A stretch of 64,000 bases of DNA, from positions 3,836 through 67,835 of the forward strand of contig CAMRBW010000002.1 of the NCBI GenBank assembly GCA_947040555.1. Reading direction: 5' to 3'. This document shows positions 25,223-32,589 of this stretch, piece after piece (positions within the stretch are counted from its first letter, which is position 1; each line of letters starts with the position of its first letter). Source of the DNA: an uncultured Oceanospirillales bacterium. GTDB lineage: Bacteria; Pseudomonadota; Gammaproteobacteria; Pseudomonadales; Endozoicomonadaceae. The notes beneath the pieces were generated by a model. It made no database searches and had not been told where the DNA came from. It was given only the letters and a program-made list of their open reading frames with translations. The position numbers and the translations under genes were made by a program.

Positions 25223-25720
25223 ATGTCCCATCGTCAGAATGTCGAAGACAACTTACAACGTTTCGCTGAAGGTATTGGTCTTGGTGAGCTGAAACTAAAC
25301 GAACATGGCGCCTGTGGGCTCTGTTTCGATGATTCGCTTATCGTGAATATGGAGTATCTGGAGGAGGACGAGGCGATGGTCTTTGTCTCTGCCGTCAAGC
25401 CAGTCGATCTTCATGCCAGCCCGGAAAATAAGGCCGCTGAGTTCGAGAAGTTTCTGTTCATCAATCTCCAACACCATAGTATGCAGGGCGCCTTCCTGAC
25501 CCTGAATCACGATAAAACCGAAATCCTGCTGATCCGTTCCATGGCTGCCAGTATCGATTATGGCTATTTTGAGTCAGCGCTGGAAAAATTCGTCAATACG
25601 CTCGAATGGATTGTTCAAGAAGCCAACGACGCCTCAAGTGATGGGTCCTCAACTCCGACCGGAGGATCCGGTACTCCGCCTCCGGCACAGCCTGATGGTG
25701 GTATGGGCATTATGGTTTAA
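25223..25720 (+). CDS. Class I type III secretion chaperone (CesT/InvB/SycE-like)
   Basis: 165 aa and acidic. The N-terminal pattern (LxxFAEGIGLGELKLNEHGACGLCFDDSLIVNMEY) is typical of CesT-family chaperones. It sits immediately upstream of sctN, as invB does relative to invC. Confidence 0.6.
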   Translation: MSHRQNVEDNLQRFAEGIGLGELKLNEHGACGLCFDDSLIVNMEYLEEDEAMVFVSAVKPVDLHASPENKAAEFEKFLFINLQHHSMQGAFLTLNHDKTEILLIRSMAASIDYGYFESALEKFVNTLEWIVQEANDASSDGSSTPTGGSGTPPPAQPDGGMGIMV

Positions 25721-25761
25721 ATCAATCGTTTTTTTCACTTTCCCTTGTTTTCCCACTCTTT

Positions 25762-25787
25762 GCGCCCTTTCAGGGCGTATTTTTTTG
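25762..25787 (+). terminator. Rho-independent terminator after the chaperone gene
   Basis: Stem cgccct/agggcg with a 3-nt loop, followed by tattttttt. Confidence 0.75.
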
Positions 25788-25856
25788 TCGTCAAAACAAC
25801 CGGCCTGCCGATTCTATAGTCTTAGTAACAGTGCAGATTGCCATGATCAGAATCCC

Positions 25857-25921
25857 GTGGTTCAAAATCTGTGGTTAGAGTTATGGTTAAAAGTCATGGT
25901 TAAAAGTCATGGTTAAAAGGA
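25857..25921 (+). promoter_or_regulatory. Five tandem ~13-bp units (RTGGTTMAARRKY) abutting the sctN Shine-Dalgarno
   Basis: gtggttcaaaatct gtggttagagtt atggttaaaagtc atggttaaaagtc atggttaaaagga. The last unit overlaps the SD AAAGGAG. Confidence 0.6.
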
Positions 25922-25928
25922 GCGAACC

Positions 25929-27263
25929 TTGAGCAAAAGTGATGCCCTCGACTATCTGACAGAAGCCCTCCAGAATGCCGTCGATGGCAGCCGTCTGGTA
26001 GACATTCGTGGCCGGGTAACAGAAGTGCGCGGCATGATTATCAAGGCGGCGGTGCCCGGCGTGAAAATCGGTGAGCTGTGTGAACTGTTCACCCCAGGCG
26101 AAGACGATATGAACTACGCCGAGGTGGTTGGCTTTGAGGGCTACGATGCCGTATTAACGCCCCTTGGCGAGATGATGGGTCTCTCCTCCAATACCGAAGT
26201 GATACCCACCGGACGGGTACACCATGTGGCGGTGGGCCCTCATCTGCTGGGACAGGTACTGGATGGTATGGGCCGCCCTTTGCACGCGAATCCCGATGAA
26301 AATAGTACTCCTGATGCCTGGTACCCGGTCTATGCCAATGCTCCCGACCCTCTGACCCGAAAAATTATTGATAAACCCATGCCTCTGGGGATACGAGCCC
26401 TCGACGGCATACTCACCTGTGGTGAAGGCCAGCGTATGGGTATCTTTGCCGCCGCCGGTGGTGGTAAGTCCACTCTGCTCTCGATGTTGGTCAAAGGTGC
26501 TCAGGTCGATGTCACCGTACTGGCGCTGATCGGTGAACGGGGACGGGAACTGCGCGAGTTTCTCGAACATGATCTGGGCATAGAAGGGGTCAAAAAATCG
26601 GTGACTATTGTCGCCACCTCGGATCGATCCTCTATGGAGCGGGTCAAAGCCGCCTATACCGCAACCGCTGTTGCCGAGTATTTTCGGGATCAAGGTAAAC
26701 GGGTGTTGCTGCTGATGGATTCGGTCACCCGTTTTGCCCGAGCCCAGCGAGAGATCGGCCTGGCCGCCGGTGAGCCTCCGACTCGCCGTGGTTTTCCGCC
26801 CTCGGTATTCGCCACGCTACCGAAACTGATGGAGCGGGCCGGAATGTCTGACAAAGGTTCGATCACCGCACTGTACACGGTTTTGGTGGAAGGCGATGAC
26901 ATGACGGAGCCGGTCGCCGACGAAACCCGTTCCATTCTCGATGGCCATATTATTCTCTCCCGCAAGCTGGCATCCGCCAATCACTATCCGGCCATCGATG
27001 TGCTGGCCAGCACCAGCCGGGTAATGAACAACATTGTCGATCAAAGCCATATTGACGCAGCGGGCAAAATACGGGAACTGATGGCTAAGTACGAAGAGAT
27101 CGAACTGCTGGTCAAGGTGGGAGAATACAAGCCGGGAACCGATCCGCTGGCGGATCTTGCTCTGGCCAAAATGGATCTTATCCGCACCTTCCTGAAACAG
27201 CGCACCGATGAACTCACTCCGTTTGAGACTACTGTGCAACAACTGCATCAGGTACTTCGGTAA
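25929..27263 (+). CDS. sctN: T3SS ATPase
   Basis: Walker [11 protein letters not shown] and Walker [12 protein letters not shown], with YscN/InvC-like sequence throughout. TTG start lies 6 nt after AAAGGAG. Confidence 0.95.
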
Positions 27264-30395: not shown

Positions 30396-30409
30396 CAGGA
30401 GAGATTACT

Positions 30410-30673
30410 ATGGTTGAAGCTGAAGTTCTGACAATGACTGCCAAGGCGCTGATGCTGACGCTGATACTTTCCATGCCCCCCATCATTGCGGCAGCGGGTA
30501 TCGGCCTGCTAATCAGCCTGGTTCAAGCCCTGACCCAGATTCAGGAACAGACCCTGCCCTTTGCCTTCAAACTGATCGCTGTGGTGATCAGCATTTTCGC
30601 CACGGCCCGCTGGATGGGAATTGAAGTGTATAACTTCGCACTGGCGGTCATGAACCACATCCCCAATATCTGA
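30410..30673 (+). CDS. sctS: T3SS export apparatus protein
   Basis: 87-aa two-TM protein of YscS/SpaQ type (LISLVQALTQIQEQTL). Strong SD (AGGAGA). Confidence 0.9.
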   Translation: MVEAEVLTMTAKALMLTLILSMPPIIAAAGIGLLISLVQALTQIQEQTLPFAFKLIAVVISIFATARWMGIEVYNFALAVMNHIPNI

Positions 30674-30690
30674 CCTGGTTCCCTGAAACT

Positions 30691-31485
30691 ATGCCTCCCG
30701 AAATAGCCAGCGAGATCAAGGATGTCCTGTTCATCTACAGCATGTCTATGGTGCGCATGGCTGCGGCGTTTAATCTGCTGCCCATGCTCAACAAACAGGT
30801 GGTCGGCGGCGCCATGATCCGTAACGGCATTGTCGGTAGTCTTGCTATCTTTCTCTATCCTGTTATCTCCACTCAGGGAGCACCTGCCGAAACAGGCATA
30901 CCGATGATCTTCGCTCTCATTCTGAAGGAGACCATGATCGGTATGTTTATCGGCTTTATCGCCAACATCCCGTTCTGGGCGATGGAAGCGAGCGGTTTTG
31001 TTATCGACAACCAACGCGGTGCGTCCATGGCCAGCACCGTCAATCCGATGTCCGGTTCGGAAACTTCACCTGTCGGCCTGATGTTCGCCCAGGCATTCAC
31101 GGTGCTTTACACCGTCAGCGGAACTTTTCTGATTCTGCTGGGCACCATTTTCCACAGTTATGAAGCCTGGCCGTTGTTTGAATTCTATCCAAAGCTTAAT
31201 CCGTCAGCCGCACTGTTTTTCATGGGTCAGTTTGACATGATTGTCACCCTCGCCGTCTGGATGGCAGCACCGGTTATGATCTGCATGTTCATCACCGAGT
31301 GGGGTATCGCGCTGATCAGTCGATCTGCGCCACAGTTGAACGTATTTATTCTGGCCATGCCTATCAAGAGCGCAGTCGCCCTGTCCATCCTGGTTGTTTA
31401 CGTCGCCACCCTGATGGCCCTCGGCAAACACAATGCTTTGAAAGTTCCAGAATTTATTCACCTGCTTGGTCAATACTTCATGTAG
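30691..31485 (+). CDS. sctT: T3SS export apparatus protein
   Basis: 264-aa polytopic YscT/SpaR-type protein. Position also supports the call. Confidence 0.88.
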   Translation: MPPEIASEIKDVLFIYSMSMVRMAAAFNLLPMLNKQVVGGAMIRNGIVGSLAIFLYPVISTQGAPAETGIPMIFALILKETMIGMFIGFIANIPFWAMEASGFVIDNQRGASMASTVNPMSGSETSPVGLMFAQAFTVLYTVSGTFLILLGTIFHSYEAWPLFEFYPKLNPSAALFFMGQFDMIVTLAVWMAAPVMICMFITEWGIALISRSAPQLNVFILAMPIKSAVALSILVVYVATLMALGKHNALKVPEFIHLLGQYFM

Positions 31486-31530
31486 AAGCTGTTAAAAAAA
31501 ACAACAGGTCATACCTAGCAGGGCACACCG

Positions 31531-32589
31531 ATGAGTAGCAGCAGCGGCGAAAAAACAGAAGAACCCACCCCCAAAAAACTTCGGGATGCCCGAAAAAAAG
31601 GTCAGGTTGCCAAAAGCAAGGAGGTCTCGTCCACGGCCGGTATTCTTACGGTGGTGGTGATGATCTGGGTATTGAGTGACTGGTATCTGCAGATGTTCCA
31701 GGAGCTCATGCTCTACCCTGCCCAATTTTATGAGATGAAGTTTCGGGTAGCCTTGAAGGCCGTCGCTCTTGGCCTGTTGTCCAAGGCTTTGCTGATGATT
31801 GCGCCCTTGGTAATTGCTTCCGCCTTTGCCGCCGTTGCCGGTAATATCATCCAATTCGGCATGCTACTGACCTTTGAACCGATAAAGCCCGACATAAAAA
31901 AGATCGATCCGATTCAGGGTGCCAAAAAGATCTTCTCCGTAAAAAACATCGTTGAACTCATCAAATCCATTATCAAGATTGTGTTTCTTTCAATGGTCGT
32001 CTACTTCGTGATCCGGGACAGTCTGAATGATCTGATCAACATGCCCTGGTGTGGTTCCAGCTGCATTATGCCGGTGCTCGGCTCACTAATGAAAAAGCTG
32101 ATGTTGTTTGCCATTGTCGCATTTATAGTGATCGCGATTCTGGACTTTATGTTCGAGAAGTACCAGTTCACCAAGGAGCAGCGTATGACCAAGGATGAGG
32201 TCAAGCGTGAATACAAAGAGATGGAGGGTAACCCGGAGATCAAAGGCAAACGCAAGCAGCTGCACCAGGAGTTGCTCAATTCAGAAGACGATGTTTCTCA
32301 ATCCGATGTGGTGATCAAAAATCCAACACACATCGCCGTTGGCATGCACTACAGTAAGTCCGATACTCCGCTACCGGTCATTACCTGTCTGGGTAAACGC
32401 AATCAGGCGCAGTTTATTCTGAAAGTGGCTGAACGACACAACATTCCTGTCATGGAAAATGTTCCCCTCGCCCATGCGCTGTTCAGTCAATCGGAAGTAG
32501 GTGATTACATACCAAGAGAGCTGATAACCCCCGTCGCCGAAGTGTTCCGCTGGGTGCAACAGATGAAACAAAACGAAAATCCCGAATAA
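31531..32589 (+). CDS. sctU: T3SS export apparatus switch protein
   Basis: N-terminal EKTEEPTPKKLRDARKKGQV, an NPTH autocleavage motif (VIKNPTHIAVG), and 4 TM segments. Confidence 0.95.
   Translation: MSSSSGEKTEEPTPKKLRDARKKGQVAKSKEVSSTAGILTVVVMIWVLSDWYLQMFQELMLYPAQFYEMKFRVALKAVALGLLSKALLMIAPLVIASAFAAVAGNIIQFGMLLTFEPIKPDIKKIDPIQGAKKIFSVKNIVELIKSIIKIVFLSMVVYFVIRDSLNDLINMPWCGSSCIMPVLGSLMKKLMLFAIVAFIVIAILDFMFEKYQFTKEQRMTKDEVKREYKEMEGNPEIKGKRKQLHQELLNSEDDVSQSDVVIKNPTHIAVGMHYSKSDTPLPVITCLGKRNQAQFILKVAERHNIPVMENVPLAHALFSQSEVGDYIPRELITPVAEVFRWVQQMKQNENPE

Follow-up and report, generated by a model that had tools for sequence, protein, structure and literature searches.

A set of type III secretion system (T3SS) genes lies among housekeeping genes in the window, the 64-kb stretch analyzed here of DNA from a bacterium of the Endozoicomonadaceae, which live as symbionts of marine animals, with the remaining genes of an injectisome nowhere beside it. 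The question is whether these genes encode one module of a machine whose other parts lie elsewhere on the chromosome, or the leftover half of a lost one.

Organization of the locus

The stretch at positions 25223–32589 contains nine co-directional ORFs, encoding a CesT-family chaperone followed by sctN-O-P-Q-R-S-T-U (Table 1). Gaps between the genes from sctN to sctU are 5–50 bp long. The first-pass annotation identified the sct genes correctly but counted eight ORFs; its start, 25223, is that of the chaperone gene, so that there are nine. The flanks it named, purL–tadA and sbcB–dnaE, agree with the coordinates. Three genes located in between had gone unmentioned: a metzincin-like gene, a FixJ-type response regulator gene, and a receiver-only gene. 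The GC content of the sctN–sctU stretch resembles that of the flanks. The 64-kb window contains no tRNA genes, and the operon has neither flanking direct repeats nor an integrase or IS element at its borders.

Table 1 Features of the sctN–sctU locus and its flanks (window coordinates).
Feature	Position	Strand	Product or content	Evidence or location
purL	19087–23046	-		one flank
tadA	23101–23652	-		same flank as purL
metzincin-like gene	23954–24754	-	MMP-like, HELGHVFGLRH, no signal peptide (tentative)	PF00413 26 bits, just above cut-off; between tadA and chaperone gene
candidate promoter	25149–25178	+	sigma-70-type, TTGAAT-18-CATAAT	consensus scan; upstream of chaperone gene
chaperone gene	25223–25720	+	class I T3SS chaperone, CesT/SicP family, 165 aa	PF05932 CesT 47.8 bits
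intrinsic terminator	25761–25789	+	GCGCCC-loop-GGGCG, then T run	terminator scan; 3' of chaperone gene
tandem repeat	25879–25919	+	13 bp, AGTCATGGTTAAA, 3.2 copies	Tandem Repeats Finder score 75
sctN	25929–27263	+	T3SS ATPase, 444 aa, TTG start	NF005391 771 bits (cut-off 657)
sctO	27276–27752	+	central stalk, 158 aa, TTG start	PF07321 YscO 94.8 bits, model positions 2–147 of 149
sctP	27794–28534	+	needle-length ruler/substrate-specificity switch, 246 aa	PF09483 HpaP 28.6 bits (cut-off 23.8)
sctQ	28540–29694	+	sorting-platform/C-ring protein, 384 aa	TIGR02551 111 bits (cut-off 100.8); PF01052 FliMN_C 69.5 bits
SctQ Met254	29299–29301	+	internal Met	ahead of SpoA domain
sctR	29745–30395	+	export-gate subunit, 216 aa	TIGR01102 281 bits (cut-off 209); FliP 227.9 bits
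sctS	30410–30673	+	export-gate subunit, 87 aa	TIGR01403 101 bits (cut-off 76.5); Bac_export_3 82.9 bits
sctT	30691–31485	+	export-gate subunit, 264 aa	TIGR01401 253 bits (cut-off 163); Bac_export_1 174.2 bits
sctU	31531–32589	+	autocleaving switch protein, 352 aa	TIGR01404 427 bits (cut-off 358); Bac_export_2 377.7 bits
SctU NPTH	32320–32331	+	autocleavage motif	residues 264–267
response regulator gene	33021–33662	+	FixJ-type	between sctU and sbcB
receiver-only gene	33940–34305	+		between sctU and sbcB
sbcB	34326–35801	-		other flank
dnaE	36740–40252	-		other flank, beyond sbcB

Products of sctN to sctU

Pfam matches uphold the gene calls from N through U. SctN is composed of ATP-synt_ab (293 bits) and T3SS_ATPase_C (88.9 bits) domains, with intact Walker A (P-loop) and Walker B (VLLLMDS) motifs. 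Among plasmid-borne proteins, VscN and YscN match it best (68–69%). The TTG start of sctN and its AGGAG sequence are kept in most relatives (loci L003–L009). The public gene call of sctO is 134 aa long; its later start would cut into the YscO domain. SctP scores 36.6 bits, below the cut-off, with the YscP C-terminal domain model TIGR02514, and its gene occupies the position of yscP in pYV. The internal Met of SctQ is invariant in 11 homologs and aligns with YscQ Met218, and an internally initiated SctQ-C is probably also made. SctR, SctS, SctT, and SctU are 61, 55, 48, and 49% identical to their Yersinia Ysc counterparts. The NPTH site of SctU, previously read as intact, is indeed so and has the same position as in YscU. 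The C-terminal domain of SctU matches YscU best (134 bits), followed by EscU (113) and FlhB (48).

Injectisome and flagellar identities were compared using NCBIfam models, each with its own cut-off. SctQ was scored with the injectisome model TIGR02551, and the flagellar comparison covered SctN, R, S, T, and U. SctN scores 500–580 bits against the FliI clades, below their cut-offs of 587–630. Scores are likewise too low for SctR with fliP (190 bits, cut-off 217), SctS with fliQ (71, cut-off 89), SctT with fliR (117, cut-off 169), and SctU with flhB (336, cut-off 349). The injectisome cut-offs are passed, in line with the first-pass call of an injectisome rather than a flagellar apparatus. Judged by sequence, the system is a Ysc-type injectisome, since SctN shares 68% identity with YscN and clears the cut-off of the equivalog model NF005391, which YscN itself matches with 900 bits, and since the gene order is that of Yersinia yscN–U.

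Chaperone gene, control elements, and metzincin neighbor

The chaperone has weak matches to CesT and ExsC in the PDB. Homologs with 69–82% identity are encoded directly 5' of sctN in relatives (L003–L010, L014, and L016). The chaperone gene probably forms its own transcription unit. The promoter upstream of it is a weak candidate, because shuffled sequence is expected to contain just as many such sites as the region does. The terminator keeps its hairpin and T run in the window and in most of ten related loci aligned with it (weakly in L010 and L014), and the spacer around them is not conserved. The 13-bp tandem repeat abuts the Shine-Dalgarno sequence of sctN and was not found in relatives in the spacer alignment.

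The metzincin has weak matches to catalytic domains of animal MMPs. Its gene, an insertion between tadA and the chaperone gene with a local GC content of 0.456, is confined to the species of the window (L001/L002) and absent from L003–L016. The metzincin is a candidate secreted effector.

The stand-alone operon is a family trait

The closest species representatives belong to Parendozoicomonas, Sansalvadorimonas, and Kistimonas, with SctU 83–87% identical to that of the window; the SctU of Parendozoicomonas haliclonae is 87% identical. ENA metagenome scaffolds match the window sequence exactly. The operon stands alone in these three genera, in Endozoicomonas, and in Ca. Endonucleobacter, often beside purL–tadA. 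The arrangement is seen at loci L003–L010 and L012. Endozoicomonas L014 has the order purL-tadA-CesT-sctN..U, and in Ca. Endonucleobacter L024 the operon lies alone between housekeeping genes. No other Ysc homologs are located within ±10 kb of the operon in these Endozoicomonadaceae. The stand-alone arrangement is not an oddity of one genome but is fixed throughout the Endozoicomonadaceae. In some reduced relatives the operon is broken up further. In the nearest outgroups (Halochromatium L018, L019, L020, L021, and L026), sctW-sycN-yscX-yscY-sctV adjoins sctN.

Searches for the remaining components

Among the remaining large ORFs of the window, all searched with Pfam, none gave a match to FHIPEP, a secretin, YscJ, or a needle, gatekeeper, or translocon protein. 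In a tblastn search of the window with all 34 Yersinia pYV Ysc/Lcr/Yop proteins, the sole matches were to N, O, R, S, T, and U. Both results bear out the earlier observation that sctV, sctC, sctD, sctJ, needle, and translocon genes are missing from the 64 kb. The possibility that core genes begin just outside was also followed up: on the source scaffold, the next 10 kb leftward of the window carry polyamine and glycogen genes and no T3SS core gene. A metagenome scan and a search of representatives found no sctV, sctC, sctD, or sctJ for the window's organism or any Endozoicomonadaceae. The matches listed in two SctV protein searches belong to other lineages only. An Endozoicomonadaceae SctV, with an expected identity of about 60%, would rank below the best 120 matches, which explains why it is not seen among them.

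Published genomes supply other components. In the gene table of Ca. Endonucleobacter childressi, YscL, YscJ, YopD, YopB, and SycD adjoin glnA, LcrV lies at a distance of about 60 genes, and YscD at one of about 1200, in a numbering that spans several contigs; the rows listed include neither sctV nor sctC (PMC11521996). The T3SS genes of Endozoicomonas sp. OPT23 are located "in different genomic regions" (PMC6955870). The literature on Endozoicomonadaceae reports T3SS gene sets as complete yet scattered.

A proposed module of a dispersed injectisome

We propose, with a probability of about 80%, that the operon is the N-to-U module of a Ysc-family injectisome, the rest of which is encoded at other chromosomal loci, and that the split is ancestral to the family. 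The hexameric ATPase SctN with its SctO stalk, the SctP ruler and switch, the SctQ platform, the SctR-S-T gate core, and the autocleaving switch SctU would be able to work only within a complete machine, of which they form the cytoplasmic and inner-membrane half. Other loci on the same chromosome would have to encode SctV, the SctC/D/J rings, needle, inner rod, SctK/L, gatekeeper, LcrV tip, and YopB/D translocon. A contiguous Ysc-type island may have been fixed in the core genome and then broken into modules in or before the family ancestor. The N-to-U module would have settled next to purL–tadA, and fragmentation would have continued in some lineages. From selection, the outgroup comparison, and other authors' annotations of related genomes, we infer that the remaining genes exist in the window's genome, and the injectisome is presumably expressed and secreting.

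It is very improbable that the operon is an orphan, either a non-functional leftover or a half-system kept for a secretion-independent role after loss of the rest. Such an origin would fit the lack of any other T3SS core gene in the 74 kb around the operon, the lack of an Endozoicomonadaceae SctV among the matches listed in any search, and the further break-up in reduced relatives. However, more than a dozen genomes from at least five genera have the eight sct genes and the chaperone gene in intact form, and the motifs for catalysis and autocleavage are retained, as is the internal start of SctQ. In comparisons of window genes with four genera, dN/dS is 0.045–0.073 for SctN, 0.04–0.11 for SctR, 0.03–0.09 for SctS, and 0.03–0.125 for SctU, equal (overall 0.03–0.12) to that of the housekeeping gene dnaE (0.047–0.059); because dS is saturated, the true ratios are lower than computed. 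Purifying selection like that on dnaE indicates that the operon is not a relic, and the low ratios and kept motifs agree with the first-pass argument from intact ORFs. SctP and SctQ, which usually evolve fast, are 24–64% identical between genera, and their conservation therefore proves less. Other components are reported in related genomes, and the non-detection of SctV has the technical explanation given above. Of the two options raised initially, dispersed loci are thus favored over an orphan relic by selection, occurrence in at least five genera, sctV adjacency in outgroups, and the literature.

The operon is very unlikely to be a spare, a paralogous set of ATPase and export-gate genes plugging into a second complete T3SS, whether injectisome or flagellum. 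We are aware of no established mixing of flagellar with injectisome export gates. The content of the window is compatible with a spare set, published analyses count many T3SS-related genes in these genomes, and Endozoicomonas species have flagella and express the genes for flagellar export (PMC9296628). Every genome looked at, however, has a single such operon at a syntenic site, and the Ca. Endonucleobacter table, in its listed rows, has single scattered Ysc-type structural genes and no second full cluster.

Recent horizontal insertion of a partial Ysc pathogenicity island between tadA and sbcB is highly unlikely. T3SS clusters are commonly mobile, and the adjoining metzincin gene is lineage-specific and low in GC. 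Nevertheless, the same purL–tadA or dnaE-side context is shared by genera with purL only 54–71% identical, SctN divergence broadly follows that of housekeeping genes, and the borders lack the marks of mobility searched for. The chance that a flagellar export operon was mistaken for an injectisome is negligible: all Pfam families involved are common to flagella, but YscO and YscP/HpaP domains are present, FliO, FliM, and FliL genes are absent, and the NCBIfam cut-offs, the SctU C-domain scores, and the equivalog shared by SctN and YscN refute flagellar identity.

Comparison with known systems

The operon is the chromosomal equivalent of the yscN–yscU (virB) operon of Yersinia pYV, with identical gene order, the same SctN equivalog, and matching SctU NPTH and SctQ Met positions. 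The Yersinia operon, however, is part of a 26-kb plasmid-borne cluster, with yopN-...-lcrD (sctV) divergent immediately upstream and yscW-virF-yscA-L downstream, whereas here the surroundings are purL/tadA and sbcB/dnaE, and a CesT-type chaperone gene precedes the operon in place of yopN. SctP has 246 residues, compared with about 453 in Yersinia.

Endozoicomonas sp. OPT23 and Ca. Endonucleobacter childressi have the same family-level system at scattered loci. The window's species represents another genus-level lineage, with SctN 77–81% identical, and differs in the lineage-specific metzincin gene beside the operon and in keeping the chaperone gene, apparently lost in Ca. Endonucleobacter. An earlier publication already mentions the arrangement (PMC6955870), and the operon is real but largely ordinary, because it stands alone family-wide and the published injection-machine genes are scattered.

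Halochromatium roseum (NHSH01000066.1) and two ENA metagenome contigs (L019 and L021) share the N-to-U order, with SctN 72–78% identical, and L019 has a CesT-type gene just 5' of sctN. Unlike in Endozoicomonadaceae, the sctW-to-sctV genes, and in Halochromatium also the translocon genes, are directly beside sctN–U. The chlamydial T3SS, a family of its own, is encoded in several dispersed chromosomal clusters, with sctU and sctV adjacent and sctN in another cluster. The system described here differs in holding N through U together and in belonging to the Ysc family of Gammaproteobacteria, but resembles that of Chlamydiae in being inherited vertically, as core-genome content in a host-associated lineage, and in having its operons split among housekeeping genes.

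Organization of the sctN-U operon

The forward strand of the window carries nine ORFs between positions 25223 and 32589, a gene for a CesT-family chaperone followed by sctN, sctO, sctP, sctQ, sctR, sctS, sctT, and sctU. The operon placed here by the first-pass annotation was confirmed, but with nine ORFs, as the chaperone gene had been omitted from its list. A spacer of 208 bp separates the chaperone gene from sctN, and the eight sctN-U genes are spaced by gaps of only 5–50 bp. By Pfam, each of these genes falls in its expected family. The P-loop AAAGGGKST and the Walker B motif VLLLMDS of SctN are both intact, as is the autocleavage site NPTH of SctU at residues 264–267 (263–266 in YscU). 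In the public annotation, the start of sctO is placed 72 bp too far downstream, which gives 134 aa (positions 5818–6222 of L001, a locus of the window's own species). The TTG-initiated sctO, 158 aa long, spans the entire YscO domain and begins 12 bp after sctN. Met254 of SctQ is invariant in 11 of 11 homologues and aligns with Met218 of YscQ, in Yersinia the internal start that yields YscQ-C. The conserved methionine is directly followed by a strongly acidic run, MSDDFDDFDDLDDDLDLGDDFD, which is kept in the Parendozoicomonas/Kistimonas group and precedes a Pro/Ala-rich linker that varies greatly in length.

Features of the window and their coordinates
Feature	Position	Strand	Remark
562-aa ORF	7354-9042	+	
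Metzincin	23954-24754	-	266 aa
CesT-family chaperone	25223-25720	+	165 aa; PF05932, 47.8 bits
G+C-rich hairpin and T run	25761-25789	+	3' of chaperone gene; terminator scan
Motif TGCCGATTCTATAG	25806-25819		5' of sctN
Tandem repeat AGTCATGGTTAAA	25879-25919		13-bp unit, 3.2 copies
sctN	25929-27263	+	TTG start; Pfam family as expected
sctO	27276-27752	+	TTG start; PF07321, 94.8 bits
sctP	27794-28534	+	246 aa; PF09483, 28.6 bits
sctQ	28540-29694	+	passes TIGR02551
SctQ residues 254-320	29299-29500		includes acidic run MSDDFDDFDDLDDDLDLGDDFD
sctR	29745-30395	+	injectisome equivalog
sctS	30410-30673	+	injectisome equivalog
sctT	30691-31485	+	injectisome equivalog
sctU	31531-32589	+	injectisome equivalog
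FixJ-type response regulator	33021-33662	+	just 3' of sctU
Receiver-only gene	33940-34305		
WD40 beta-propeller protein	40331-41401	-	between dnaE and rnhB
ORF without family match	50541-51089		
Lower-GC stretch	51000-64000		GC 0.38-0.49
ORF without family match	58114-59085		
ORF without family match	61990-62715		

The terminator hairpin 3' of the chaperone gene is kept in most relatives, whereas the surrounding spacer is not. Because this terminator is conserved, the chaperone gene is probably transcribed alone, as a unit of its own. From its sequence features, sctN-U would form a single polycistronic unit. The TTG start of sctN and its AGGAG are kept in the closer relatives (loci L003–L009). 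The short motif TGCCGATTCTATAG recurs 5' of sctN in several genera and may be part of the sctN-U promoter. The tandem repeat AGTCATGGTTAAA, which abuts the sctN ribosome-binding site, was found in none of the aligned relatives. Its copy number could vary, or it could influence the expression of sctN-U.

Relationship to flagellar and Ysc-type systems

SctN, SctR, SctS, SctT, SctU, and SctQ all score above the curated cut-offs of the NCBIfam Sct equivalogs. The flagellar equivalogs FliI, FliP, FliQ, FliR, and FlhB, compared with the five proteins SctN, SctR, SctS, SctT, and SctU, all remain under their own cut-offs, and these model scores rule out a flagellar export apparatus. The operon encodes a YscO-type stalk and a YscP/HpaP-type ruler, and no FliO, FliM, or FliL was found in it by ORF map and Pfam. 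The module is a non-flagellar injectisome core, in agreement with the first-pass annotation.

Identity rankings, model scores, and gene order, the tests available, place the module in the Ysc family. SctN reaches 771 bits against NF005391 (cut-off 657), a model that YscN matches end to end with 900 bits. In a plasmid search, the best SctN matches were Photobacterium VscN and Yersinia YscN, at 68–69%. Identity to the Yersinia proteins is 68% for SctN, 61% for SctR, 55% for SctS, 49% for SctU, and 48% for SctT. For the C-terminal domain of SctU, YscU is a better match than EscU or FlhB, and in the PDB ranking of SctN two T3SS ATPase entries stand above EscN, SsaN, FliI, and Spa47. The gene order is that of the Yersinia yscN-O-P-Q-R-S-T-U operon.

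Isolation of the operon in the window and in Endozoicomonadaceae

When all remaining sizeable ORFs of the 64 kb were searched with Pfam, they proved to be metabolism, replication, and envelope genes and several orphans. None encodes an FHIPEP, secretin, YscJ/YscD, needle, gatekeeper, or translocon protein by this search. When all 34 Ysc/Lcr/Yop proteins of the Yersinia enterocolitica pYV plasmid were compared with the window by tblastn, only YscN, O, R, S, T, and U matched; yscX, yscY, sycN, tyeA, lcrG, and lcrV were not found. Both searches bear out the earlier statement that sctV and the secretin, ring, needle, gatekeeper, and translocon genes are missing from the window. A contiguous island just beyond its edge had been named as a finding that would refute a split locus, and the 10 kb further left on the source scaffold hold polyamine and glycogen genes and no T3SS genes.

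Scaffolds in two ENA metagenome assemblies are identical to the window. The closest species representatives by SctU are Parendozoicomonas haliclonae (87%), Parendozoicomonas sp. (85%), Sansalvadorimonas (83–86%), and Kistimonas (83%). Among 5.8 billion proteins searched with SctN, roughly the first 70 matches form one group of about 73–89% identity. Most of these are unnamed, and all that have a name belong to Endozoicomonadaceae or Oceanospirillales (Kistimonas, Endozoicomonas, Ca. Endonucleobacter, and a single Oceanospirillales MAG). The next named matches, at 72–74%, belong to Competibacteraceae and Chromatiaceae. Of ten loci recovered with SctU, nine have no other Ysc homologue within 10 kb of the chaperone-sctN..U genes; one of the nine (L012, from a family relative) has sctN..U without the chaperone gene. 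Altogether, the sctN-U module is isolated in over a dozen genomes.

The tadA-to-sbcB interval, whose comparison in relatives had been suggested, keeps its sbcB side in one group of relatives and its purL-tadA side in others. The Parendozoicomonas/Sansalvadorimonas group has thiolase and dehydrogenase genes 5' of the operon and, as in the window, the FixJ-type regulator, the receiver-only gene, and sbcB 3' of it, with PilZ and dnaE next where the locus reaches that far. Endozoicomonas GCA_049310285.1, the MAG chromosome OZ242051.1 (3.47 Mb), and the MAG HC_Bin2 have purL-tadA 5' of the operon, as in the window. The sctN-U genes of Ca. Endonucleobacter GCA_030674875.1 lie between dcd/bolA/ABC ATPase and tamB/tamA. 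The stand-alone context is a trait of the family Endozoicomonadaceae.

Neighboring genes

The metzincin contains the sequence HELGHVFGLRH and a hydrophilic N-terminus, has no signal peptide, and weakly resembles the catalytic domains of animal matrix metalloproteinases. Its gene is found between tadA and the chaperone gene in the window's species only, where the local GC is lower (0.456). It may be a eukaryote-like secreted effector. The FixJ-type regulator is 96–99% identical (dN/dS 0.005–0.013) across genera in which dnaE is 82–88% identical, a degree of conservation well above that of all other genes nearby. The receiver-only gene beside it is only 47–58% identical. We rejected the regulator as a T3SS component, as it stands beside the operon in Parendozoicomonas/Sansalvadorimonas and not in Endozoicomonas or Ca. 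Endonucleobacter.

The WD40 protein has eukaryote-like repeats. In one of two near-identical ENA scaffolds, 208 of its 356 residues were matched and no gene was called, and in Sansalvadorimonas verongulae rnhB directly follows dnaE; the insertion is therefore variable. The lower-GC stretch, which may be a variable region, contains three glyoxalase-family genes, a cytidine-deaminase-fold gene, an MscS channel gene, and the ORFs without family match listed in the table. The 562-aa ORF (530 aa in the public call) belongs to no Pfam family and has faint coiled-coil-type matches only.

Selection on the operon

Pairwise Nei-Gojobori dN/dS values of the window against four genera are 0.045–0.073 for SctN, 0.04–0.11 for SctR, 0.03–0.09 for SctS, 0.03–0.125 for SctU, 0.09–0.16 for SctO, and 0.15–0.25 for SctP and SctQ. 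The corresponding values are 0.047–0.059 for dnaE and 0.16 for sbcB. Since synonymous sites are saturated, these values overestimate the true ratios. Low dN/dS and the retention of fine details are not what a decaying relic would show.

Search for the remaining injectisome genes

Secretion by SctR-S-T-U, SctN-O, and SctQ requires SctV and a basal body. Selection on sctN-U together with this need implies the genes for SctV and the basal body, which would be present in the bacterium's own genome. A search with Yersinia LcrD returned only Aeromonas, Photorhabdus, and Yersinia among the matches listed. A second SctV query was taken from L019, a contiguous outgroup cluster that came out best when non-family SctN matches were ranked by the fewest lineages closer than Endozoicomonadaceae. 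No Endozoicomonadaceae protein was among its best 120 matches listed (at least 62% identity); two large groups of these matches were rejected as other lineages with contiguous clusters (L020 and L021). An SctV profile search of 50%-identity representatives with cluster look-ups recovered no family SctV, its top match being the contiguous cluster L026, and a metagenome scan with an SctV alignment gave only Pseudomonas-like, planktonic, and chlamydia-like loci among the matches listed. The family's SctV is expected to be about 60% identical to whatever query is used, slightly less than the matches listed, and this non-recovery is therefore uninformative and does not signify absence.

Positions of the other modules in the family are taken from a single source, entries of the published gene table of Ca. 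Endonucleobacter childressi. These entries place YscL, YscJ, YopD, YopB, and SycD beside glnA (genes 261–270), LcrV at gene 330, and YscD at gene 1552 (PMC11521996 supplement). The sctN-U genes of Ca. Endonucleobacter stand alone at yet another site. The T3SS genes of Endozoicomonas sp. are the subject of a published statement by Alex and Antunes, and a passing mention in the literature already puts them in different genomic regions (PMC6955870). Our literature search found nothing pairing sctV or ysc gene names with Endozoicomonas, and no published description of the conserved anchor at purL-tadA, of how contiguous outgroups differ, or of the additional splits. The family-wide stand-alone context, purifying selection, and the published annotation of related genomes support dispersed loci, one of the two possibilities left by the first-pass annotation.

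Probable origin and further fragmentation

In the nearest outgroups, Halochromatium roseum and the metagenome contigs L019, L020, and L021, the genes sctW, sycN, yscX, yscY, and sctV lie directly beside sctN-U. L026 also has these genes, from sctW to sctV, in a contiguous cluster; the L026 sequence examined covers this block but not sctN-U. Three of these clusters contain partner-switching genes within the T3SS locus (L019 7035–9900, L021 8872–9237, and L026 12137–12490), encoding a SpoIIE-type phosphatase/anti-sigma kinase fusion or STAS-domain proteins, none of which occurs in the window.

Most simply, the breakup of a contiguous Ysc-type cluster would date to the ancestor of the family or earlier, and the sctN-U module would have been vertically inherited since. 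Vertical inheritance is suggested by the lack of tRNA genes in the window and of meaningful border repeats at the operon, by an operon GC content similar to that of the flanks, and by SctN divergence that broadly tracks housekeeping divergence (SctN 90% where dnaE is 88%; SctN 81–84% where purL is 54–71%).

The module is split further in two lineages. The closed symbiont chromosome OZ242051.1 carries purL-tadA-chaperone-sctN..T at one site (L016 10001–15499) and sctU on the same strand about 30 kb beyond sctT, beside clpX-clpP-tig (L011 9998–11050). Among the genes between sctT and sctU are one for a PLD-like protein and a pair encoding 301-aa paralogues. JGI Ga0376127_00012 (L017 10001–13604; SctN 72% identical) has only sctN-O-P-Q, an even smaller T3SS module. 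These genes lie between gshB/kefB-like genes and a TonB receptor gene, beside a gene for a large ankyrin-repeat protein.

We propose, with a probability of about one half, that at the base of Endozoicomonadaceae a Ysc-type injectisome turned from a mobile island into a core-genome system that is passed on vertically and spread, chlamydia-like, over several loci, with sctN-U anchored at purL-tadA and fission ongoing in reduced-genome symbionts.

Proposed mechanism and implications

By analogy with known Ysc systems, the SctRST core with SctU would be placed in the inner membrane, SctQ and SctQ-C would form the sorting-platform pods, and SctO would link the SctN hexamer to the export gate. SctP would measure the needle and flip the SctU-dependent substrate specificity. 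The sctN-U products would dock onto SctV, SctD/J/C, SctK/L, needle, tip, and translocon encoded at other loci.

Corals, sponges, molluscs, and fish harbor Endozoicomonadaceae as dominant symbionts and sometimes as pathogens, and the T3SS of these bacteria has repeatedly been invoked as a means of talking to host cells. Detectors that need co-localized genes can under-call a split machine or call it "incomplete", and the presence or absence of a T3SS may be misjudged in MAG surveys with only some modules. The purL-tadA/chaperone-sctN..U site offers a simple marker locus, and the lineages with further splits are a natural experiment on which genes can be separated. If the core-genome reading is true, the family would be a natural series for determining which injectisome genes must stay co-transcribed and how the scattered modules are co-regulated, for instance through the motif 5' of sctN. 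Existing knowledge of how injectisomes work is unchanged by these findings.

Yersinia YscP is about twice as long as the SctP described here, and we speculate that a protein of about half the YscP length would, by the ruler model, set a shorter needle. The partner-switching genes of the outgroup clusters recall the regulation of the Bordetella and chlamydial T3SS. The isolated module of Endozoicomonadaceae resembles the multi-locus architecture of the chlamydial T3SS but differs from it in ancestry.
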